DNA of 64,000 bases from Bacteroidales bacterium (GCA_016285085.1 JAEEQA010000004.1:13836-77835); one strand, 5' to 3'; shown: positions 4,585-32,345, counted from the stretch's first letter. The notes: generated by a model not told the origin, from the letters alone. A program made the numbers and translations.

Positions 4585-4614
4585 TGTAGAGACGCGATTC
4601 ATCGCGTCTCTACA
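4585..4614. repeat. Palindromic element copy 1 (TGTAGAGACG-CGATTCATCG-CGTCTCTACA); likely tyrS terminator hairpin
   Basis: Inverted arms GTAGAGACG/CGTCTCTAC with a self-complementary centre (CGAT..ATCG). Starts 8 bp after the tyrS stop. Confidence 0.85.
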
Positions 4615-5814: not shown

Positions 5815-5844
5815 TGTAGAGACGCGGTGCACCACGTCTCTACA
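5815..5844. repeat. Palindromic element copy 2 (centre CGGTGCACCA)
   Basis: Same arms. The inner GGTGCACC is a perfect palindrome, with one C.A mismatch next to the arms. Lies downstream of the minus-strand gene that ends at 5926. Confidence 0.85.
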
Positions 5845-5874: not shown

Positions 5875-5905
5875 TGTAGAGACGCCATATTATGACGTCT
5901 CTACA
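5875..5905. repeat. Palindromic element copy 3 (centre CCATATTATGA)
   Basis: Same arms, with a near-self-complementary 11-nt centre. It is 30 bp from copy 2 and 21 bp downstream of the stop at 5926. Confidence 0.85.
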
Positions 5906-20267: not shown

Positions 20268-23200
20268 ATGGATACTATGAAAAATATCGCTCCTTTGTCT
20301 CAATCGCAATTAGGTATTTATGCCGAATGCGTACATCACGAAAACGAGATCTTTTATAACCTCCCCTTTCTCTATGTTTTTGACGGCAGTCTCGACGCCG
20401 ACCGGTTGTGCCGCGCCATAGAGGCGACCTTAAAGGCGCATTCCACTTTCTTCACACGGATTGAACTGAGTGATGACGGAGAACCTTTGCAGACTATTGA
20501 CCTGGAAAAAGAGGAATTCAGCCTTTCCGTCGAGCAGGTTACGGACCTTGAGGCTGAGAAGCGAAAATTCATCGAGCCTTTCAAACTCCATGGCGGCAGG
20601 TTGTTTCATACCAAGGTGATGCGCGACGCGGAGCATGTCTATTGGTTCTTCGACATGCATCATATCATCAGCGACGGCTCCTCGTACCATATTATCGTTT
20701 GCGATGTGGAAACGGCTTACAACGGCGGCACGCTGGCTCCCGAGGAGATGACGATGCAGGAACTGGCCCTTGCCGAAGCCGAGATGCGGAAAACGCCTGC
20801 TTTCGAGGAGGGCAAACAGTGGTATGCCCAGAACTTCGACTGCGGCGACACGTTCACCCAGCTCATGCCCGACCTCGAAATCCCCGAACAAACAGATGCC
20901 AATAAACACCGCGTCCTCAATACTGATATGGACCGGGTGGATGCTTTCTGCAAGACCAACGGCATCAAAAAAAGCACCTTCTTCACGTCGGCATTTTCTT
21001 TCCTGCTGGCCAAGTACAACAACGATCAGGAATCGCTGTTCACCACGGTTTTCAACGGTCGCACCGACCCGAAGTTCCAACATTCCGTCGGCATGACAGT
21101 AAAGACGCTGCCCGTTTACGCCAAGTTCACGGAAGAGACCACGGTGCTCGATTTCATGAAAGCCGGCGAGGAACAGATGATCGGCTGCCGCAAGCACGAC
21201 CTCTATTCCTATACCGACATCATGACCGACCTCAACCTGCAAACCAACGCCATATTTGCATGGCACGGGCTCATACTTGATTTCACCGAACTGATGGGCA
21301 AACCCATGGAGGCCATTCAGCTCCGCAAACATAACGAGGGAGTGTCGTTCTATCTGATGGCTTACTATGTCGGCAAAAAATATCATATCAAAGCGGAATA
21401 CAACGCCAACGAATATTCCGAGACGCTGGTTGACCAATTCATGGAGAGTTACGAGGCGGTTTTGGAGGGCTTCCTAAGCCAAACTCTCCTGTGCGACATC
21501 GACATCTGCACCGAGAGCCAGCGCGCCCTGCTTGACCGTTTCAACCAGACCGACAAGGAGTTGGATATGAACGCGACCATCGTTTCCAAGTTTCGTGAGC
21601 AGGTGGCGAAGACTCCTGACAACATCGCGGTGGTTTATCAGGACAAACGTTTTACCTACAAAGAATTGGATGAGATTTCCGACCGCATCGCAGCCTATAT
21701 CCATGGGAAAGGCCTTCATGAAGAGGATGTCGTTTCTGTGTTGATTCCGCGTTGCGAATGGATGCCTATCGTCTCCATGGGCGTGTTGAAGGCCGGCTGT
21801 GCTTACCAGCCCCTCGACCCCACCTATCCTTCGGAACGTCTCAACTTCATGATGCAGGATGCCTCCGTGAGGTTGCTCATCGCCGACCCGGAACTGCGCG
21901 GTATCGTCGATCAATACACCGGCGAGGTGCTGTTTACCACGGACATCAAAACATTGGAAACCGTAGAGACGTTTCATGAAACGTCTCTACAACAGCCGAA
22001 TTCGTCCTCCCTTTTCATCATGCTTTACACTTCCGGCACTACGGGAACGCCTAAGGGCTGTCAGATTGTGCATCGCAACATCGTTGCGTTCTGCGAGTGG
22101 TACCACCACCGGTTCAACCTCACCGCTGACTGCCGCGTTTCGGCCTACGCCAGTTTCGGTTTCGATGCCAATATGATGGAAACCTATCCTGCGCTCACGT
22201 GTGGTGCCACGCTCTACATTATCCCTGAAGAACTGCGCCTGGATTTGCTGGCATTGAACGAATATTTTGAGCAAGAGCAGATTACTCACGGATTCATGAC
22301 CACGCAGGTGGCTTATCAGTTTGCCACTTCCATTGAGAACCACTGCCTGCACTACCTGTTGACAGGCGGCGAGAAGCTGGCACCCCTGACCCCGCCTGCG
22401 AACTACACGCTGGTGAACCTCTATGGTCCGACCGAAAGCACCGTCTGCATCACCTCCTTCGACGTGACAAAGCCCATGAAGGACATCCCGATTGGCTCGG
22501 CGTTGGACAACACCAAGCTTTATATTGTCGATAAGGCGGGTCACCGTCTGCCGGTGGGGGTAGCGGGTGAGCTCTGGGTCGCCGGACCGCAAGTGAGTCG
22601 CGGCTACCTCAACCGTCCCGAAAAAACCGCTGAGGTCTATATCGACAACCCCTTCGATTCCAGCGAGAAATACGCGCACATCTACCGCACCGGCGACATC
22701 GTACGCTACCTGCCCGACGGCAACATCCAGTTCGTGGGACGTAAGGACGGACAGGTCAAGATCCGCGGTTTCCGCATCGAATTAAAAGAGGTTGAAGGCA
22801 TCATCCTTCAATTCCCCGGCATCAAGGACGCCACCGTGCAAGCCTTCGATGAAGAGGGCGGCGGCAAGTTCATTGCGGCCTATATCGTTTCCGATGAACA
22901 AATTGACATCGATGCCTTGAACAACTTCATCATGGAGGAGAAACCGCCTTACATGGTGCCCGCCGTGACGATGCAGATCGACCGGATTCCGCTCAACCAG
23001 AACCAGAAAGTGAACAAGAAAGCCCTTCCCAAGCCCGAGAAGAAAGCGGCTGAGGCGGTGGTGGAGAGCAATGTGCCCATGAATGTACTTGAGAAGGAAA
23101 TCCACGACATCATTGCAAAAATCATCAATACCGAGGACTTTGGCGTAACGACCGTATTGGGCTATGTCGGCCTCACCTCCATCATGGCCATCAAACTGGC

Positions 23201-26200
23201 CATCCAGATCAACAAACGTTTCGGGGTCACCCTCGACTCGAAATCATTGGCCAAGACGGGTACTTTGCAAAGCATTGAAAACGAAATCCTAAACGCGATG
23301 CTCTCAGGAAATGTCGCTGTTCATTCCAGCGAGTCTGGGCAGTCTGTTCAGACAGAACAGGCCACTCCGACAGGTCCGGTTCCCTTGAGCTACGCGCAGA
23401 TGGGTGTCTATGTGGATTGCATGAAACAGCCCACGTCCACGGTCTATAACATTCCTTCACTCATCCGTTTTCCCAAAGGAACCGACGTGCTGCTGCTTGC
23501 CAAATCTGTGGAGACCCTCGTCAAGGCGCACCCGCAGTTCTTTGTGCATTTTGACAGCGAAGGAGGCGAAATCGTACAGATTGTTGACACCAATCAACCG
23601 GTTACCGTCACAAAGAGCCAGTTAAGTGAAACGGAACTGGAAAAATACAAGGTGAAGTTTGTAAGACCGTTCAACTTGCGGCAGGGACCGCTGTACCGCA
23701 TGGAAATCGTCACCACCGGGCAGGATGTTTACCTCTTGGCCGATGTCCATCACCTGATTTTCGACGGCGGTTCCTTCGACCTGTTCCTGAACCAGTTGTG
23801 CGACCTGATGAACGGCAAAGAGATCGAAGCCGAGGCCATCAACTATGCGGCTTTTGTCGCCGACGAGAAAGCGGCTGAAAACAGTCCGAGCTACCTTGAG
23901 GCCAAGAACTTCTTCAACGAGCGTTTGGGTAAAGTGGAGGGCGTCACCGAAGTGCCTGCCGACCTGACCAATCCCGTGGAGCAAGGCACGGTCAGCGAGG
24001 CTTTCTGCAAGCTGGATTTCGATGCGATGGAGGAATTTTGCAAGAAAAACAATCTCTCACCCGCGCACCTCACCCTGGCGGCGGTGTTCTATGCGCTCTC
24101 GCGTTTCACCAACAACGAACAGATTTGCATCACCACCATCAGCAACGGCCGCTCTGACCTGCGCATCCGCAACACGACGGGCATGTTTGTCAACACGCTG
24201 GCCCTGAGTGCCCAGATTGGCGACCAAAGCGTGATGGACTTCCTGAAGGAGACCAGCCAGAACTTCAACGAGACTTTGACCCATGAAAAATATCCGTTTG
24301 CGCAAATTGCCGCCGACTACGACCTGTCGGCCGAAATCATGTTTGCCTATCAGATGGGTGTTATTGACCAATATCTTGTCAATGGTCAAAAACTTGAAAT
24401 AGAGTCTCTTGAGCTGAACACACCGAAGTTCCGTATCGCTTTCTACATTCAAGAAAAAGAAGGTGTGCCGGGCGTGGTGGTGGAATACGACAATGGTCGC
24501 TACAGCCAGGAACTGATGCAAAGTCTGGCGCAGTCGGTCAGCAATGCAGTCAATGCTTTCATCCGCCAGCCGGAGTCGGCGTTGCAGCATATTTCCCTGC
24601 TGGATGCCGAACAGACCGCTTTGCTCGACAGCTTCAACCAGACGGCTGTGCCTTACGACGACACCCAGACCATTGTTTCGCTGTTCCGCAAGCAGGTGGA
24701 GCAAACGCCCGACAATCTGGCGGTGGTGTATCATGATAATAAATACACCTATCGCGAGGTGGATGAGATTTCGGAGCGCATCGCAGGCTATGTCGTCGCA
24801 CAAGGACTTGGGAACGAAGATGTCGTTTCCGTGCTGATTCCGCGCTGCGAATGGATGGCCATCGTTTCGTTGGGCGTTTTGAAGGCCGGCTGCGCCTACC
24901 AGCCCCTCGACCCGAGCTATCCCGCCGAACGTCTGAACTTTATGATGAAAGACGCCGCTGCAAAACTGCTCATTGCCGATGAAGAATTGCGTCCCATCGT
25001 AAATGAATATGAAGGAAAGGTGTTGTTGACAAAGGATATTGCGACATTGAACCCTGTAGAGACGTTTCATGAAACGTCTCTACATGAAACGTCTCTACAA
25101 CCGACGCCGTCCTCCCTTTTCATCATGCTTTACACCTCCGGTTCCACGGGAACGCCGAAGGGTTGTCAGCTGGAACATGGCAACTTGGTGGCTTTCTGCC
25201 ATTGGTATCAGCGCCATTATGGGCTGACGGCCGCCGACCGCGTGGCGGCGTATGCCAGCTATGGTTTCGACGCCTGCATGATGGACCTTTACCCGGCGTT
25301 GACGTGCGGTGCCTGCGTCCACATCATTGGGGATGACATCCGCCTGAACCTGCCCGACCTCAACAACTATTTCAATGAGCAGGGCATCACCCACTCGTTC
25401 ATCACCACGCAGGTGGGCTACCAGTTTGCCACGAATGTGGACAACCACTCACTGCGTTGCTTCGCGGTGGGTGGCGAGAAGCTGTCCGCCCTCAACCCGC
25501 CGACAAACTACAAGATGTACAACGGCTACGGTCCGACGGAGTGTACCATCTTCACCACCAACTACTGGGTGAAGGATTACGAGCTGGACATCCCCATCGG
25601 CAAACCGCTGGACAACCTGAAACTCTATATCGTTGACAAGCAGTTTAATAGATTGCCTCTCGGGGCTGCCGGCGAACTATGGGTCACGGGACCGCAGGTG
25701 AGCCGTGGCTACCTGAACCGTCCCGAAAAGACGGCCGAGACCTACCTGAAGAACCCCTTCAGCGATGACCCGAAGCACGCCCGCGTCTATCGCACCGGCG
25801 ACATCGTGCGCTACCTCCCTGACGGCAACATCCAGTTTGTGGGGCGCAAGGACGGTCAGGTGAAAATTCGCGGCTTCCGCATCGAGCTGAAGGAGGTGGA
25901 AGCTGTCATCCGCCAGTATCCGGGCATCAAGGACGCCACCGTACAAGCCTTTGATTATGAGAACGGTGGAAAGTACATTGCCACCTATATTGTCAGCGAT
26001 GAGAAAGTTGACATCAAACAGCTCAATGCTTTCATCGGGCAGCAGAAACCGCCCTACATGATTCCGGCGGCGACGATGCAGATTGACAGCATCCCGCTGA
26101 ACCAGAACCAGAAGGTGAACCGCAAGGCACTGCCCACGCCCGTCATCCAAGCCAGCGACCGTGAGTATGTGGCACCGGCCAATTCGGCGGAGGAGCTGTT

Positions 26201-27602
26201 CTGCCGTATCTTCGGTGAGGTGCTCGCTCTCGACAAAGTCGGCGCCACCGACAACTTCTTCGATCTCGGCGGCACCTCTCTGATGGTGACCCGCGTCATC
26301 ATCGAGGCCGACAAGCAGGGGGTGCATGTGGCCTACGGCGACGTCTTCGCCAATCCCACCCCGCGCAAACTCGCCGCACTCGTCATGGGAGGCATTGTTG
26401 TCAATACCGACGATGAGGAGGTGACCCGATTTGATTATTCTTCCATCAACAATTTACTGGGTAACAATACATTGGATAGCTTCCGCAATGGCGAGCGGCA
26501 ATCCTTGGGCAACGTTCTGCTCACCGGTGCCACAGGTTACCTGGGCATTCATGTGTTGCAGGAACTGATCCAGTCGGATGCGCAGAACATCTACTGTCTG
26601 GTACGCGACAAGAACCTGGATGGCGCCGAGCACCGGTTGAAAACATTGCTGTTCTACTATTTTGAATCCACCTACGACGAGCTGTTCGGCAACCGTCTTC
26701 ACATTGTCCTTGGCGATGTCACCAACGACCTGACCGCTCTTGTCGAAGCGAAGATTGACACGGTGTTCAACTGTGCCGCTGTCGTAAAGCACTTCAGTGA
26801 AGGCACCGAGATTGAGGATGTGAATGTGGGAGGCGCGCAGCGTTGTGTGGAGCTCTGTCTGAAGACCGGCGCACGGTTGGTACACATTTCCACGTACAGC
26901 ACCAGCGGGCTCAACGTCAACGACACCATGGCTTCCGACTACATCTTCACCGAGCAGCGGCTTTACGACGGTCAGTACCTCGGAAACCAGTACGTTCATT
27001 CCAAGTTCATGGCCGAACGCATCGTACTGCAATCGATAGTAGAGGACGGGCTGTCGGCCAAGGTGATCCGTGTCGGTAACCTGGCGGCACGCACCAGCGA
27101 CGGTGAGTTCCAGATCAACTTCTCCACCAACTCCTTTATGGGGCGTATCAAAGTCTTTAACATGCTGGGCTGCTTCCCCTATTCTCTGTACGAGAGTAAA
27201 GTGGAGTTTTCACCCATTGATGAGGTGGCGCATGCCATCATTCTGCTCAGTTCCACACCCAAGGAGTGCTGTGTGTTCCATGCTTACAACAGCCACGAGC
27301 AGTTCCTCGGCGACGTCCTCAGCGGATTCAACAACCTGGGCACAAACATCCGTCTCGTGGAGGACGAGGAGTACAACGCCACCATGGAGAGTGCGGGCAA
27401 CGATCCCCAGAAGGCCAAGACGCTTTCCAGCTTGCTCGCTTACCAAGATATGGCCCACGGCATGAAAGTCAAACAGGTGGTCGTTAGTAACCAGTACACC
27501 ACGCAGGTGCTCTATCGTCTGGGCTTCAAATGGTCGCCCACCACGTGGGACTACGTCGATCGCATGTTGAGTGCCATCAGCGGGTTGGGATTCTTTGATT
27601 AG
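20268..27602 (+). CDS. Bimodular non-ribosomal peptide synthetase, C-A-T-C-A-T-R (terminal thioester reductase)
   Basis: 2444 aa. Two 'HHxxxDG' C-domain motifs (HHIISDG, HHLIFDG). Two adenylation cores ('LYTSG(T/S)TGTPKG', 'YGPTE', 'GELWV.GPQVSRGY', 'YRTGD', 'GRKDGQVKIRGFRIEL'). Two carrier sites ('GLTS', 'LGGTS'). The C-terminal SDR carries 'LLTGATGYLG' and 'YVHSK'. Confidence 0.93.
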   Translation: MDTMKNIAPLSQSQLGIYAECVHHENEIFYNLPFLYVFDGSLDADRLCRAIEATLKAHSTFFTRIELSDDGEPLQTIDLEKEEFSLSVEQVTDLEAEKRKFIEPFKLHGGRLFHTKVMRDAEHVYWFFDMHHIISDGSSYHIIVCDVETAYNGGTLAPEEMTMQELALAEAEMRKTPAFEEGKQWYAQNFDCGDTFTQLMPDLEIPEQTDANKHRVLNTDMDRVDAFCKTNGIKKSTFFTSAFSFLLAKYNNDQESLFTTVFNGRTDPKFQHSVGMTVKTLPVYAKFTEETTVLDFMKAGEEQMIGCRKHDLYSYTDIMTDLNLQTNAIFAWHGLILDFTELMGKPMEAIQLRKHNEGVSFYLMAYYVGKKYHIKAEYNANEYSETLVDQFMESYEAVLEGFLSQTLLCDIDICTESQRALLDRFNQTDKELDMNATIVSKFREQVAKTPDNIAVVYQDKRFTYKELDEISDRIAAYIHGKGLHEEDVVSVLIPRCEWMPIVSMGVLKAGCAYQPLDPTYPSERLNFMMQDASVRLLIADPELRGIVDQYTGEVLFTTDIKTLETVETFHETSLQQPNSSSLFIMLYTSGTTGTPKGCQIVHRNIVAFCEWYHHRFNLTADCRVSAYASFGFDANMMETYPALTCGATLYIIPEELRLDLLALNEYFEQEQITHGFMTTQVAYQFATSIENHCLHYLLTGGEKLAPLTPPANYTLVNLYGPTESTVCITSFDVTKPMKDIPIGSALDNTKLYIVDKAGHRLPVGVAGELWVAGPQVSRGYLNRPEKTAEVYIDNPFDSSEKYAHIYRTGDIVRYLPDGNIQFVGRKDGQVKIRGFRIELKEVEGIILQFPGIKDATVQAFDEEGGGKFIAAYIVSDEQIDIDALNNFIMEEKPPYMVPAVTMQIDRIPLNQNQKVNKKALPKPEKKAAEAVVESNVPMNVLEKEIHDIIAKIINTEDFGVTTVLGYVGLTSIMAIKLAIQINKRFGVTLDSKSLAKTGTLQSIENEILNAMLSGNVAVHSSESGQSVQTEQATPTGPVPLSYAQMGVYVDCMKQPTSTVYNIPSLIRFPKGTDVLLLAKSVETLVKAHPQFFVHFDSEGGEIVQIVDTNQPVTVTKSQLSETELEKYKVKFVRPFNLRQGPLYRMEIVTTGQDVYLLADVHHLIFDGGSFDLFLNQLCDLMNGKEIEAEAINYAAFVADEKAAENSPSYLEAKNFFNERLGKVEGVTEVPADLTNPVEQGTVSEAFCKLDFDAMEEFCKKNNLSPAHLTLAAVFYALSRFTNNEQICITTISNGRSDLRIRNTTGMFVNTLALSAQIGDQSVMDFLKETSQNFNETLTHEKYPFAQIAADYDLSAEIMFAYQMGVIDQYLVNGQKLEIESLELNTPKFRIAFYIQEKEGVPGVVVEYDNGRYSQELMQSLAQSVSNAVNAFIRQPESALQHISLLDAEQTALLDSFNQTAVPYDDTQTIVSLFRKQVEQTPDNLAVVYHDNKYTYREVDEISERIAGYVVAQGLGNEDVVSVLIPRCEWMAIVSLGVLKAGCAYQPLDPSYPAERLNFMMKDAAAKLLIADEELRPIVNEYEGKVLLTKDIATLNPVETFHETSLHETSLQPTPSSLFIMLYTSGSTGTPKGCQLEHGNLVAFCHWYQRHYGLTAADRVAAYASYGFDACMMDLYPALTCGACVHIIGDDIRLNLPDLNNYFNEQGITHSFITTQVGYQFATNVDNHSLRCFAVGGEKLSALNPPTNYKMYNGYGPTECTIFTTNYWVKDYELDIPIGKPLDNLKLYIVDKQFNRLPLGAAGELWVTGPQVSRGYLNRPEKTAETYLKNPFSDDPKHARVYRTGDIVRYLPDGNIQFVGRKDGQVKIRGFRIELKEVEAVIRQYPGIKDATVQAFDYENGGKYIATYIVSDEKVDIKQLNAFIGQQKPPYMIPAATMQIDSIPLNQNQKVNRKALPTPVIQASDREYVAPANSAEELFCRIFGEVLALDKVGATDNFFDLGGTSLMVTRVIIEADKQGVHVAYGDVFANPTPRKLAALVMGGIVVNTDDEEVTRFDYSSINNLLGNNTLDSFRNGERQSLGNVLLTGATGYLGIHVLQELIQSDAQNIYCLVRDKNLDGAEHRLKTLLFYYFESTYDELFGNRLHIVLGDVTNDLTALVEAKIDTVFNCAAVVKHFSEGTEIEDVNVGGAQRCVELCLKTGARLVHISTYSTSGLNVNDTMASDYIFTEQRLYDGQYLGNQYVHSKFMAERIVLQSIVEDGLSAKVIRVGNLAARTSDGEFQINFSTNSFMGRIKVFNMLGCFPYSLYESKVEFSPIDEVAHAIILLSSTPKECCVFHAYNSHEQFLGDVLSGFNNLGTNIRLVEDEEYNATMESAGNDPQKAKTLSSLLAYQDMAHGMKVKQVVVSNQYTTQVLYRLGFKWSPTTWDYVDRMLSAISGLGFFD
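20280..21557 (+). other. NRPS condensation domain C1 (N-terminal, starter-like position)
   Basis: Approximately aa 5-430; HHIISDG at aa 131-137 (nt 20658-20678). Boundaries approximate. Confidence 0.7.
21576..23042 (+). other. NRPS adenylation domain A1
   Basis: Approximately aa 437-925. A3 'LYTSGTTGTPKG', A4 'FDANMME', A5 'NLYGPTESTVCIT', A10 'NQNQKVNKKAL'. Boundaries approximate. Confidence 0.75.
21963..21990. repeat. Palindromic element copy 4 (centre TTTCATGAAA), in-frame inside NRPS A1
   Basis: A perfect 28-bp palindrome, GTAGAGACGTTTCATGAAACGTCTCTAC. It is translated as VETFHETSLQ (aa 566-575), immediately N-terminal to the A3 core motif. Confidence 0.9.
23079..23297 (+). other. NRPS carrier (T/PCP) domain T1
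   Basis: Approximately aa 938-1010. The attachment site is 'GYVGLTSIMAIKL' (Ser971, nt 23178-23180), which deviates from the canonical LGGxS. Confidence 0.6.
23373..24662 (+). other. NRPS condensation domain C2
   Basis: Approximately aa 1036-1465; HHLIFDG at aa 1161-1167. Confidence 0.7.
24669..26147 (+). other. NRPS adenylation domain A2
   Basis: Approximately aa 1468-1960. A3 'LYTSGSTGTPKG', A4 'FDACMMD', A5 'NGYGPTECTIFTT'. Long stretches are near-identical to A1. Confidence 0.75.
25055..25099. repeat. Palindromic element copy 5 (centre TTTCATGAAA) plus a 15-bp partial duplication, in-frame inside NRPS A2
   Basis: The full palindrome at 25056-25083 is followed by a repeat of its right half, ATGAAACGTCTCTAC (25084-25098). 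Translated as VETFHETSLHETSLQ (aa 1597-1611), at the position homologous to copy 4. Confidence 0.9.
26175..26387 (+). other. NRPS carrier domain T2
   Basis: Approximately aa 1970-2040. Canonical 'FFDLGGTSLM' (Ser2004). Confidence 0.75.
26514..27599 (+). other. NRPS terminal thioester reductase (R) domain
   Basis: Approximately aa 2083-2444. Rossmann 'TGATGYLG' and catalytic 'Y(2242)VHSK(2246)'. Confidence 0.8.
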
Positions 27603-27636
27603 GGGGATAAAAAGGGAATATTGCTGAAAAAGGTCC

Positions 27637-29328
27637 TTATTCCTTCACCACCTTCCCCACGGATATCACCTTGCCGTCGTCCACCAATTTCACGAAATAG
27701 ATGCCGTTGGCGTAACGGGACAGATCAATCTGTACGGCCTGTAGAGACGTTTCATGAAACGTCTCTACAATATCCAACATCCTGCCAAACACGTCAAACA
27801 CCTGGATTTCAGGGTTAAGGGACAAGGTTTCCGGAGCCAGTTGGACGGTGGCGATGCCCGTGGTGGGGTTCGGATAGAGGATGAGGTCCGTGGTGCTGTT
27901 TTCGGTGATACCGACTATGGCATTTAGACAGCTGGTGGTGTCGGTACATCCGTTATAGGTGATAATGCAAGCGTATGAACCAGATGTCACGGGTTCAAAC
28001 AACCGTTCGGTAGCATTTTCAACCCACTCATTGGTTCCACAATCAATCCATTGGTATTCAGCGTTTTCTTGAGCTGCTTCCATTCTAATTGCGTACCATT
28101 GTGTACCAATCCAAGTAAGTCCTGTATTGATGCGGGTCACTGTCAAGGTCATGATGACAAGGCTGTCGCAGTCATTCGAGGAAGTCAGCATTACGCTGTC
28201 CGTGCCGTCGTTCTCAAACACAATACCGTTCCATGTATAGGGAAGTTCGCTCTCGCAAATGGTGGCTTCAACCAATTCGGTTACCGGTGTGTATATGGTA
28301 AGGTGCAGTATGATAGTGCTGTCGCTGTTCTCGATAGGATGCGTATAGTCTCCGCTGGAGGTGAGTTCTTCGCCGTACCAGTCGAAACTGCCACAGGCAA
28401 CGGCAGTGGTGTCAATAATGACAGGAGGTTCCACTCCCGCTGCCCAAAGCCGGAGGTTGTCGAGATAAAGGGACGAGCCCTGTTGCGGTTCGGAGTTGGC
28501 CGAAGAGAAGATCATAATCACCAGCGAATCGGCCTCCACATATTCAACGGTGCTGTCGATTTCGGAAAGCGGGGTATAGACAATTTCGAAGGGGGTGTAG
28601 GCCGAAACGTCCGTCAGGTTTGCGGTGTATCCGCCGCCCACGACCTCGCGCTGCTGCGTGGCAGGATTGTACTTGGACCCCAGCACCAGAATGCCGCCCT
28701 TGTCCCCGCCAACGCCCGAGGTGTATTTGTAATAGCCCGTCATCCGGCCAAAAGCCTCTCCGTTCAAGGGAATACCGCCGTCAATGATACTGTTGAGATC
28801 GACGCTGTCAAAGACACCCAGCAACAGGGGAAGACTGTCGAAATTGTTGGTGAAATCTTCTAACATCGGCAGCAGCTGGTCGATATCCACCGCGCCTGTG
28901 GTCAAAACCGTCGGGAACACCGTGGTGGTCAGCCACTCGTCTAAAGAGGATGAAGCCAGATTGTAAACGGTGGAATTGACGATGTCGGAGAGCATGAAAC
29001 TCTGCAGCTTGACCGCATGGGAACCCTCGGGCACGCCGGTGGTTTCGTCGGAAACTTTCAGTAGCGGAAGGTCCGTGTTCACATTGACCGTCATTCCGAA
29101 ATAGGTGACACTCTCGTTCACGGGATAGGTGGGGTAATTCCAGCCCGTCGGATACGTATAGCTATCGTAAACAGGCAAGGAGATAAAACCGCCCACGGAT
29201 GCGCTGTACCCATTGCCTGTTGACCAGTTCTCAAAACCGCTGTTTGTCAGAGGAATGGAATTTTGTCCCGTCGTCTTCACCGACAGGAGAAAAAAGAGGG
29301 GTAAAAGGAGAAGGATAAAACGTTTCAT
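27637..29328 (-). CDS. T9SS C-terminal-sorting-domain cargo protein (secreted, function unknown)
   Basis: The ORF track gives 27637..29370, but its first 14 codons derive from palindrome copy 7. The ATG at 29328 gives the signal peptide 'MKRFILLLLPLFFLLSVKTTGQ'. The N-terminal region is 'NSGFENW'-type. The C-terminus 'LYPNPTTG....VFDVFGR......IDLS.YANGIYFVKL...K' matches the Por_Secre_tail pattern. Confidence 0.78.
   Translation of the reverse strand: MKRFILLLLPLFFLLSVKTTGQNSIPLTNSGFENWSTGNGYSASVGGFISLPVYDSYTYPTGWNYPTYPVNESVTYFGMTVNVNTDLPLLKVSDETTGVPEGSHAVKLQSFMLSDIVNSTVYNLASSSLDEWLTTTVFPTVLTTGAVDIDQLLPMLEDFTNNFDSLPLLLGVFDSVDLNSIIDGGIPLNGEAFGRMTGYYKYTSGVGGDKGGILVLGSKYNPATQQREVVGGGYTANLTDVSAYTPFEIVYTPLSEIDSTVEYVEADSLVIMIFSSANSEPQQGSSLYLDNLRLWAAGVEPPVIIDTTAVACGSFDWYGEELTSSGDYTHPIENSDSTIILHLTIYTPVTELVEATICESELPYTWNGIVFENDGTDSVMLTSSNDCDSLVIMTLTVTRINTGLTWIGTQWYAIRMEAAQENAEYQWIDCGTNEWVENATERLFEPVTSGSYACIITYNGCTDTTSCLNAIVGITENSTTDLILYPNPTTGIATVQLAPETLSLNPEIQVFDVFGRMLDIVETFHETSLQAVQIDLSRYANGIYFVKLVDDGKVISVGKVVKE
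27640..27890 (-). other. T9SS type-A C-terminal sorting domain (interrupted by a 10-aa palindrome-encoded insert)
   Basis: The last ~83 aa. Boundaries approximate. Confidence 0.7.
27741..27768. repeat. Palindromic element copy 6 (centre TTTCATGAAA), in-frame inside the T9SS sorting domain
   Basis: The same perfect 28-bp palindrome as copies 4 and 5. On the minus strand it again reads VETFHETSLQ. It lies about 140 bp beyond the convergent NRPS stop. Confidence 0.9.
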
Positions 29329-29358
29329 TTGGGAAATGATTAGGGTTTTGTTTAAAAT

Positions 29359-29386
29359 GTAGAGACGCAAAATTTTGCGTCTCTAC
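29359..29386. repeat. Palindromic element copy 7 (centre CAAAATTTTG), intergenic
   Basis: A perfect palindrome, GTAGAGACGCAAAATTTTGCGTCTCTAC. It sits 16 bp downstream of the stop at 29402 (minus strand) and 31 bp upstream of the start at 29328. Confidence 0.9.
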
Positions 29387-29401
29387 AAATGTTACGGTTA
29401 T

Positions 29402-32245: not shown

Positions 32246-32289
32246 GGTTGTTTATTTGTTTAATTGTTGATTTGTTTATCTGTTGATTC

Positions 32290-32317
32290 GTAGAGACGCA
32301 AAATTTTGCGTCTCTAC
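32290..32317. repeat. Palindromic element copy 8 (centre CAAAATTTTG), between the TM1266-like gene and hydG
   Basis: Identical 28-mer to copy 7. Coordinates are anchored on ORF-track positions (hydG start 32245; ORF 32306; stop 32323). Confidence 0.9.
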
Positions 32318-32345
32318 AATTTTCAATTTTCCGTTTTCAATTTCG
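32318..32345 (-). repeat. Heptamer tract spanning the TM1266-like gene stop and abutting palindrome copy 8
   Basis: The minus strand reads GCGAAATTGAAAACGGAAAATTGAAAATT. It encodes the same C-terminal peptide, KLKTEN*, as the GNAT gene at 1911-1931. Confidence 0.75.

Follow-up and report, generated by a model that had tools for sequence, protein, structure and literature searches.

An in-frame double-foot REP in the T9SS sorting domain of a gene that converges on an NRPS gene

Palindromic repeats of bacterial genomes and the place of this locus among them

The closest described systems are the double-foot REPs, which are defined by a 5' GT[AG]G and a 3' C[TC]AC and are tied to subclass 2.4 of the TnpA_REP (RAYT) proteins, recognizable by the motifs NH[IFV]H, WQ and YIxNNP (Quentin et al. 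2018, PMC6006769). Subclass 2.4 and double-foot REPs are frequent in Cyanobacteria and Bacteroidetes; subclass 1.2 is listed without REPs (PMC6006769). A second point of reference is provided by the Rickettsia palindromic elements, which, as the work of Ogata et al. (2000) is summarized in PMC3184786, are ~105-146 bp long and lie in frame in genes, in segments that are surface-exposed or non-critical. A third is SPRITE of S. pneumoniae, which carries a Rho-independent terminator motif (PMC3184786).

The element considered here is a perfect palindrome that is read in frame through the C-terminal sorting domain (CTD) of a T9SS cargo gene, in a window (the whole stretch of DNA analysed) of 64,000 nucleotides from a Bacteroidales bacterium. 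It resembles the double-foot REPs of Quentin et al. (PMC6006769) in having GT[AG]G and C[TC]AC feet, in forming a hairpin, and in existing as many dispersed copies, and differs from them in its host, an uncultured rumen-type Bacteroidales genus, and in that this copy lies in a T9SS sorting domain; the centre swaps on identical flanks that are seen here are also not described in PMC6006769. With the Rickettsia palindromic elements it shares the behaviour of a selfish palindromic repeat that is tolerated in frame within protein genes; unlike them, it is 30 bp long, has GTAG/CTAC feet and a candidate RAYT, and is unrelated in sequence. Unlike SPRITE, its hairpin is not followed by a U-tract. An in-frame, tolerated double-foot REP is thus a known kind of event, here located in a T9SS sorting domain; a search of the accessible literature for REPs within T9SS CTDs, or for in-place exchange of REPs at the CTD loop, found neither.

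The explanation of the locus as a whole that we consider probable is that a double-foot REP occupies the tip of a β-hairpin in the CTD, that this site is a long-lived harbour for such repeats, and that its proximity to the NRPS gene is a by-product of rearrangement. The palindrome would be a double-foot REP copy, a hairpin of 28-30 bp bounded by GTAG and CTAC, and its family would be mobilised by a subclass-2.4-type RAYT, whose gene, on another contig (C99), contains the same repeat in frame. Ten repeat-encoded residues would replace the native turn at the β-hairpin tip, with the fold predicted to be kept. Within one lineage of CTD cassettes, the CTD loop would have harboured REPs over a long time, with REP copies replaced in place there and the cassettes themselves shuffled. 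A rearrangement specific to this genome would then have joined the tails of two genes, so that the 138-bp distance from the NRPS stop is probably a by-product, and the hairpin would influence read-through NRPS RNA, if at all, only incidentally.

Table 1. Features of the locus and REP copies of the window (coordinates counted from the first nucleotide of the window)
Feature	Coordinates	Strand	Remarks
Intergenic REP copy	4585..4614	.	centre CGATTCATCG
Intergenic REP copy	5815..5844	.	centre CGGTGCACCA
Intergenic REP copy	5875..5905	.	11-nt centre CCATATTATGA
Two-module NRPS with terminal reductase	20268..27602	+	2444 aa; C-A-T-C-A-T-R
REP in adenylation domain 1	21962..21991	.	in frame; directly ahead of LYTSGTTG motif
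REP with 15-bp half-unit duplication	25055..25099	.	homologous site in adenylation domain 2
Spacer between convergent stop codons	27603..27636	.	34 bp; weak AU-rich stem only, then TTTTTAT (minus strand)
T9SS cargo gene	27637..29328	-	563 aa; begins MKRFILLL
Type A C-terminal sorting domain	27640..27879	-	residues 498-577 of the 577-aa ORF; PF18962 and TIGR04183
Double-foot REP copy	27740..27769	.	perfect 30-bp palindrome; centre TTTCATGAAA; minus-strand reading VETFHETSLQ
REP copy	29358..29387	.	centre CAAAATTTTG; between saccharopine-dehydrogenase-like gene and cargo-gene start
Intergenic REP copy	32289..32318	.	centre CAAAATTTTG

The repeat family and its candidate enzyme

The palindrome that the original prediction placed at 27741-27768 is real, and its full extent is slightly greater: that 28-bp core lies in the 30-bp unit TGTAGAGACGTTTCATGAAACGTCTCTACA, laid out over 27740-27769 as TGTAGAGACG TTTCATGAAA CGTCTCTACA. 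A perfect palindrome of this kind is far above chance (no match in 100 shuffles). As RNA, the unit forms a hairpin of -19.6 kcal/mol (z -6.7); the REP stem is 13-14 bp long, perfectly paired, and is worth -19.6 to -21.5 kcal/mol (z -6.7 and -4.8).

It belongs to the family GTAGAGACG-N10/11-CGTCTCTAC, which has 8 copies in the window and about 117 in the genome (2.58 Mb in 132 contigs, 52% G+C, 94% estimated completeness), and none in shuffled sequence. The feet that define the double-foot class are found at 27741-27768 (GTAGAGACG...CGTCTCTAC) and in 117 of 117 copies; the palindromic stem-loop of that class is likewise present, and the copies are numerous, dispersed over many contigs, and chiefly extragenic. 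The element reaches one base past the 28-mer, with T at -1 in ~85% of copies and A at +1; apart from these two bases and a pyrimidine at -2, nothing stands out in the flanks, and no target-site duplication was found at the copies. The same arms are present in 17 of the 18 other genomes of the genus that were searched, and they recur in several other families of this order, the favoured centres differing from genome to genome. Relatives come from rumen and horse faeces, as MAGs of uncultured Bacteroidales.

When copies are classed by the whole-gene calls of a crude caller based on codon usage (1965 genes, 87% coding), 17 of the 117 fall in CDSs, 10 at gene edges, 85 between genes and 5 at contig ends, and the intergenic copies divide into 31 convergent, 49 co-directional and 5 divergent. 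Convergent spacers, with 12% of the intergenic bp, thus hold 36% of the intergenic copies (31/85; p 3e-9), and divergent spacers hold fewer than their share (p 2e-5). A surplus between convergent genes is classical for REPs (PMC3184786), and the family shares this genomic bias with SPRITE and with the REP/BIME elements of E. coli (PMC3184786).

The majority of centres are themselves palindromic or almost so, CAAAATTTTG (n=42) and TTTCATGAAA (n=26) being the commonest genome-wide. It had also been suggested that copies embedded in CDSs share one centre that the intergenic copies lack. Within the window this is so, the three CDS copies all having TTTCATGAAA and the five intergenic copies other centres; genome-wide the association dissolves, with TTTCATGAAA found in CDSs in 6 of 26 cases as against 11 of 91 for the other centres (Fisher p=0.21), or 3 of 42 for CAAAATTTTG alone (p=0.08). 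Twenty of the 26 TTTCATGAAA-centred copies lie outside CDSs, and about seven other centres occur within them, including CAAAATTTTG, CAAAATATTG, ATGTGCACAT, CGCCATGGCA, CGCCACGGCA, GGGCGCGCCC, CGTTACACCA and TGGTGCACCG. Stop codons were considered as the cause of the relation between centre and CDS, and rejected: TTTCATGAAA is open in one frame and CAAAATTTTG in two.

Filled and empty REP sites are seen in orthologues, which marks the family as mobile. Candidates for a RAYT emerged only from a search with the NF047646 profile at a loose threshold. The ORF at C99:12169-12684 gives split NF047646 matches and has the motifs NHIH, WQ and YIEQNV; between its HuH and its Y it holds five tandem 15-bp half-units and one full GTAGAGACG REP, in frame. 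It answers to a subclass-2.4 cognate enzyme, with its REP inside the ORF and with three caveats: the insert splits the match, which brings its score below the NCBIfam curated cut-off; there are no additional REP copies flanking it within 700 bp; and YIEQNV ends in V where the subclass-2.4 motif has P. It is likely, judging by these sequence features, that a C99-type subclass-2.4 RAYT/TnpA_REP mobilises the GTAGAGACG family. Of two further RAYT-like genes, the one on contig C49 has a second double-foot family, GTAGGGCTG...CAGCCCTAC, inside and upstream of it, and the one on C84 encodes repetitive stretches of peptide. A search with Pfam Y1_Tnp found two genes (on C31 and C77, 151 aa each), which were rejected as the cognate enzyme: their YI.NQ.EHH-type motif fits subclass 1.2, and no double-foot palindrome lies within 1.5 kb of any of 25 Y1_Tnp loci, which comprise these two and 23 homologues elsewhere in the genus.

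The sorting-domain loop and the turnover of its repeats

The extreme C-terminus of the cargo protein matches both Por_Secre_tail (PF18962: 46.5 bits against a cut-off of 27, E 4e-12) and TIGR04183 (44.4 bits against a cut-off of 23, E 1e-11), in each case over residues 498-577. The palindrome lies within this domain in the frame of the minus strand, as had been predicted, and translation confirms that the identical decapeptide is read from either strand. The N-terminus of the protein is signal-peptide-like (MKRFILLLLPLFFLLSVKTTGQ), its frame is intact in orthologues, and the genome holds dozens of CTD-like matches. The minus-strand ORF as listed (27637-29370, 577 aa) extends to a TTG at 29370 because its frame runs into the upstream REP; by comparison with an orthologue (P0003, 563 aa, beginning MKRF) the true start is probably the methionine of MKRFILLL at 29328. 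For annotation, the lesson is that such repeats generate false N-terminal extensions and can pass for regulatory hairpins.

The last 100 residues were modelled with AlphaFold (AF2), using 28 homologues; the model has a mean pLDDT of 82 and seven strands, two of which (residues 54-59 and 67-72) are connected by a loop (60-66). The REP peptide, V58-Q67, spans this connection in the model: V58-E59 close one strand, T60-L66 form the turn and Q67 opens the next strand, with a confidence of ~72 across the block. The best PDB matches to the model are T9SS CTDs (mirolase 8QB1, RgpB 7PQ4, PorZ 5M11), and the substrate- or T9SS-bound CTDs 8GLK/8GL6 are also among the top matches; the predicted β-sandwich, like that of the solved CTDs, agrees with a sorting domain.

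REP-free relatives, in which the orthologous CTD type is GRRLQIIPVTDETTPIDLS, read GRRLQI-IPVTDET-TPIDLS, with 13 residues from GR to IDLS; the REP-bearing form has 17 residues over this interval, and 7 if the REP is deleted. The proposal that removing the 30 bp would restore a plausible contiguous CTD is therefore half right: the deletion does yield ..LDMAVQIDLS.., and leaves 7 residues between GR and IDLS in place of the native 13. The REP peptide therefore replaces part of the native turn, and is not a plain add-on to it. The companion proposal, that the palindrome is tolerated as a loop of the sorting domain, fares well: the position of the turn in the AF2 model, the CTDs among the PDB matches and the REP-free hairpin in close orthologues all support viewing the palindrome as a foreign repeat unit that the modelled domain accommodates in a loop.

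Comparison of the CTD loop among the members of this CTD subfamily, from this genome, from six relatives and from metagenome orthologues, reveals varied content. Some alleles have the same REP (FHET) and others have GTAGAGACG REPs that read as MCTS, CHGA, RHGT, QNFV or RYTT; still others have a double-foot REP of the GTAGGGGC type (GANNHSPLQ, GVNNYSTLQ) or a hairpin of the GGACGCAC type (SDARGASVQ and variants), and the remainder have degraded remnants or no REP. Four alleles (DNA alignment A2) have near-identical flanks, with most of the ~110 nt downstream of the REP identical, and differ in what lies between these flanks: a REP with centre TTTCATGAAA, one with centre ATGTGCACAT, or a member of a different family. 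Variation is also seen at the intergenic REP site ahead of the cargo gene, where the centre is CAAAATTTTG here, CCATATTATGA in a relative (genome G014) and CAAAATATTG in a third allele; two metagenome orthologues have no REP there. Since there are at least 8 changes per 10 bases beside unchanged arms and flanks, point mutation is not the source of these differences; the hairpin has been replaced in place. Replacement may proceed, we infer, by a RAYT cutting at both feet, or by template switching at the hairpin. Orthologues that are close in their N-terminal sequence bear very different CTDs (that of P0014, for example, is a short form), and CTD cassettes must therefore move between genes. The varied REP content on near-identical flanks thus implies both that copies are replaced in place and that CTD cassettes are shuffled, and the swapped centres constitute a natural record of double-foot REP turnover, which is a poorly understood step of the REP/RAYT cycle.

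A more specific reading of the loop, which we put forward tentatively and with somewhat less than even confidence, is that it serves as a harbour in which double-foot REPs are swapped in place on ~98% identical flanks, with the feet fixed and a RAYT cutting at both of them, and that this aids persistence of the repeats. As a cassette-like module that is cleaved off, the CTD would be a place where such exchange is tolerated, to the benefit of the survival of REP families. If this is correct, the loop provides in vivo evidence of RAYT cutting at both GTAG/CTAC feet, with the 10-nt centre or the entire REP family being exchanged while the feet remain; as a side effect, REPs in the CTD loop could cap antisense read-through from convergent neighbours.

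A competitor to an old site with swapped REPs is a series of independent insertions at a hot spot that is specific in sequence or structure, with the CTD loop and a loop of the adenylation domain as its instances. The REP copies of the NRPS gene bear on this question directly, as homologous sites are filled in both of its modules and neither is filled in the G014 orthologue (82% identity), which reads VPCSLP in A1 and VDSVKAE in A2 at the REP positions; the A1 and A2 insertions are therefore recent. Both lie just before the LYTSG(T/S)TG motif, which we take to be core A3 of the adenylation domain. The flank 3' of the REP in A1 is like A2 and unlike A1 of G014, which suggests, at the level of sequence, one insertion into the NRPS gene followed by gene conversion between modules in place of two separate hits. 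In the CTDs, the site is filled in domains that are only 54-61% identical, and by at least three REP families, as a hot spot would allow; against this, REP-free alleles share no target motif, be it GTAG/CTAC or another, the copies lack a target-site duplication, and different centres on near-identical flanks fit replacement better than a fresh hit at the exact base. We accordingly regard a hot spot as unlikely.

The junction with the NRPS gene

The geometry of the junction is as originally described: the converging gene is indeed an NRPS, coordinates and domain order agreeing, with 34 bp between the stops; the palindrome, said to be about 140 bp beyond the NRPS stop, is at a measured 138 bp; and no significant hairpin lies between the stops, the 34-bp spacer giving z -0.66 and +0.43 when its folding is compared with that of shuffled sequence, and the terminator scan finding nothing terminator-like in it. 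What is not supported is the claim that the palindrome is placed to terminate the NRPS transcript. The stable, G+C-containing hairpin that an intrinsic terminator requires is present at 27740-27769, whereas the U-run is absent 3' of it on both strands (...CUCUACAAUAUCCAACAUCC on the plus strand, ...CUCUACAGGCCGUACAG on the minus strand), and the terminator scan does not list this hairpin.

Moreover, the REP is found in the CTD where no NRPS gene converges on it. In G014, the same REP lies at the same CTD site, on the contig of the NRPS gene and 7.6 kb upstream of the NRPS start; the remaining two CTD genes with a REP in this genome (on C77 and C51) have co-directional downstream neighbours; and in metagenome orthologues with a REP in the CTD loop, the converging partner is an RNase T-like gene or a radical-SAM gene. 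These contexts establish that the presence of the REP in the CTD is independent of the tail-to-tail arrangement, which is specific to this genome and, on this comparison of sequences, probably arose later. As the REP is shared with G014 and with metagenome orthologues that lack the arrangement, it was probably not acquired for it. The junction could in principle be a misassembly, since the genome is an assembly of 132 contigs.

The corresponding gene ends in G014 are instructive. There, CAGGTAACTA-cttga-TAGTTACCTG-CTTTTTC, a canonical hairpin with T5 (z -4.4), comes after the NRPS stop and precedes a tRNA-like sequence, and the stop of the CTD gene is followed by a hairpin and ATTTTTTAT; this genome is without these canonical terminators of the NRPS and CTD genes at the junction, probably as a result of a rearrangement. 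With the spacer bare, no strong structure comes before the REP on read-through RNA of the NRPS gene, and NRPS transcripts must be ended or processed further downstream.

It is this situation that lends some credit to the view of the CDS-embedded hairpin as a terminator, a 3'-end stabiliser or a convergent-transcription insulator for the NRPS gene that is tolerated in the protein. Its spacer is unstructured whereas both G014 orthologues have canonical terminators, and the first strong hairpin that read-through RNA would encounter, at -19.6 kcal/mol and z -6.7, is the REP; REPs have been reported to influence mRNA stability (Delihas 2011, PMC3184786). The objection that the same hairpin occurs twice inside the NRPS ORF and can therefore be no terminator was downgraded: translation could melt hairpins in ORFs and would not do so on untranslated antisense RNA, where this copy, unlike those in the NRPS ORF, should be free to form. 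The 3-fold enrichment of the family between convergent genes also points this way, but is equally expected from selection against insertions into promoters, and the missing U-tract on either strand and the occurrence of the REP in CTDs without a converging NRPS gene in G014, on C77 and C51 and in metagenome orthologues weigh more heavily. A dedicated role of this kind is in our judgement improbable. On the preferred explanation, a tolerated REP brought near the NRPS stop by rearrangement, an incidental capping or stabilising effect of the hairpin on read-through NRPS RNA is possible; a striking hairpin by a gene end need not be a terminator.

That the decapeptide itself is selected, for example for tuning T9SS recognition or cleavage of the CTD, is very improbable: orthologues of 89-99% identity keep the REP whole and in frame and, in the AF2 model, its hairpin lengthens two strands of the domain, but the site accepts unrelated peptides (FHET, MCTS, CHGA, RHGT, QNFV, ADARGASLQ, GANNHSPLQ) or none, and the visible constraint acts on the DNA palindrome and not on the protein. 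The same decapeptide is also found in the NRPS loop, in a signal peptide and in a GH2-like enzyme. In-frame REPs mark loops that accept ten arbitrary residues, here the hairpin of the T9SS CTD and the loop ahead of LYTSG(T/S)TG in the NRPS, and such tolerant loops are useful for the engineering of secretion tags and of NRPSs.

The junction behind the NRPS stop

In the relative with an orthologous NRPS (G014; L038:15866-15990), a canonical terminator that looks bidirectional lies behind the NRPS stop, as does a tRNA-like sequence. Both are absent at the corresponding place in this genome (window 27603-27636), where the tail of the gene for the cargo protein with the T9SS C-terminal sorting domain (CTD) adjoins the NRPS gene instead. 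The loss of these two elements, together with the abutting CTD gene tail, marks a putative rearrangement breakpoint directly 3' of the NRPS stop in this genome, with misassembly as an alternative. In one metagenome orthologue (L066:3958-3963), the stops of the REP-bearing CTD gene and of a convergent RNase T-like gene touch, leaving zero spacer.

REP copies in reading frames

The segment of NRPS module 1 lying 3' of its REP (window 21992-22040, compared with L034 and L037) encodes SSSLFIML and is almost identical in DNA sequence to module 2. In module 1 of the G014 NRPS, the corresponding peptide is PEDLFIML. This resemblance of flanks suggests that gene conversion between modules carried the REP along with it. 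The REP located 5' of the cargo gene (window 29328-29387) is open in frame, so that the ORF is lengthened and starts only at a TTG (29370). Gene calls for two metagenome orthologues (P0014 and P0017) start with MARLYIHF, upstream of the MKRF methionine; here too the extra N-terminal residues are likely to be spurious.

Outside the window, a copy of the same TTTCATGAAA REP as at 27741-27768 lies in frame immediately behind a signal-peptide hydrophobic core at G000:C49:4642 (MKKLAIILLAFLV-VETFHETSLQ-AQDP), and another lies in frame within a GH2-like ORF of 1314 aa (G000:C53:4411). A paralogous protein pair (G000:C17:7132 and G000:C38:4581) is a further example of a single site occupied by differing REP centres: each member has a GTAGAGACG REP, read as VETMCTSSLQ and VETCHGASLQ, respectively, at a shared position behind ...NR(V/I)..VGI.

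The conserved arms of all copies, including window 27741-27768, contain GAGACG...CGTCTC, two outward-facing type IIS (BsmBI/Esp3I-type) recognition sequences, possibly by coincidence.

RAYT-like genes outside the window

A second double-foot family, GTAGGGCTGCCATATTATGACAGCCCTAC, is found within and upstream of the C49 gene, and the C84 gene has repeated DEVREVRVPFTGAP-type inserts. Pfam Y1_Tnp misses the RAYT-like ORF at G000:C99:12169-12684, because the match is split.

RAYT-like genes and their motifs
Feature	Location	Motifs
RAYT-like gene	G000:C49:6683-7332	NHIH, YIEQNP
RAYT-like gene	G000:C84:8327-8839	DHIH, YIRNNP
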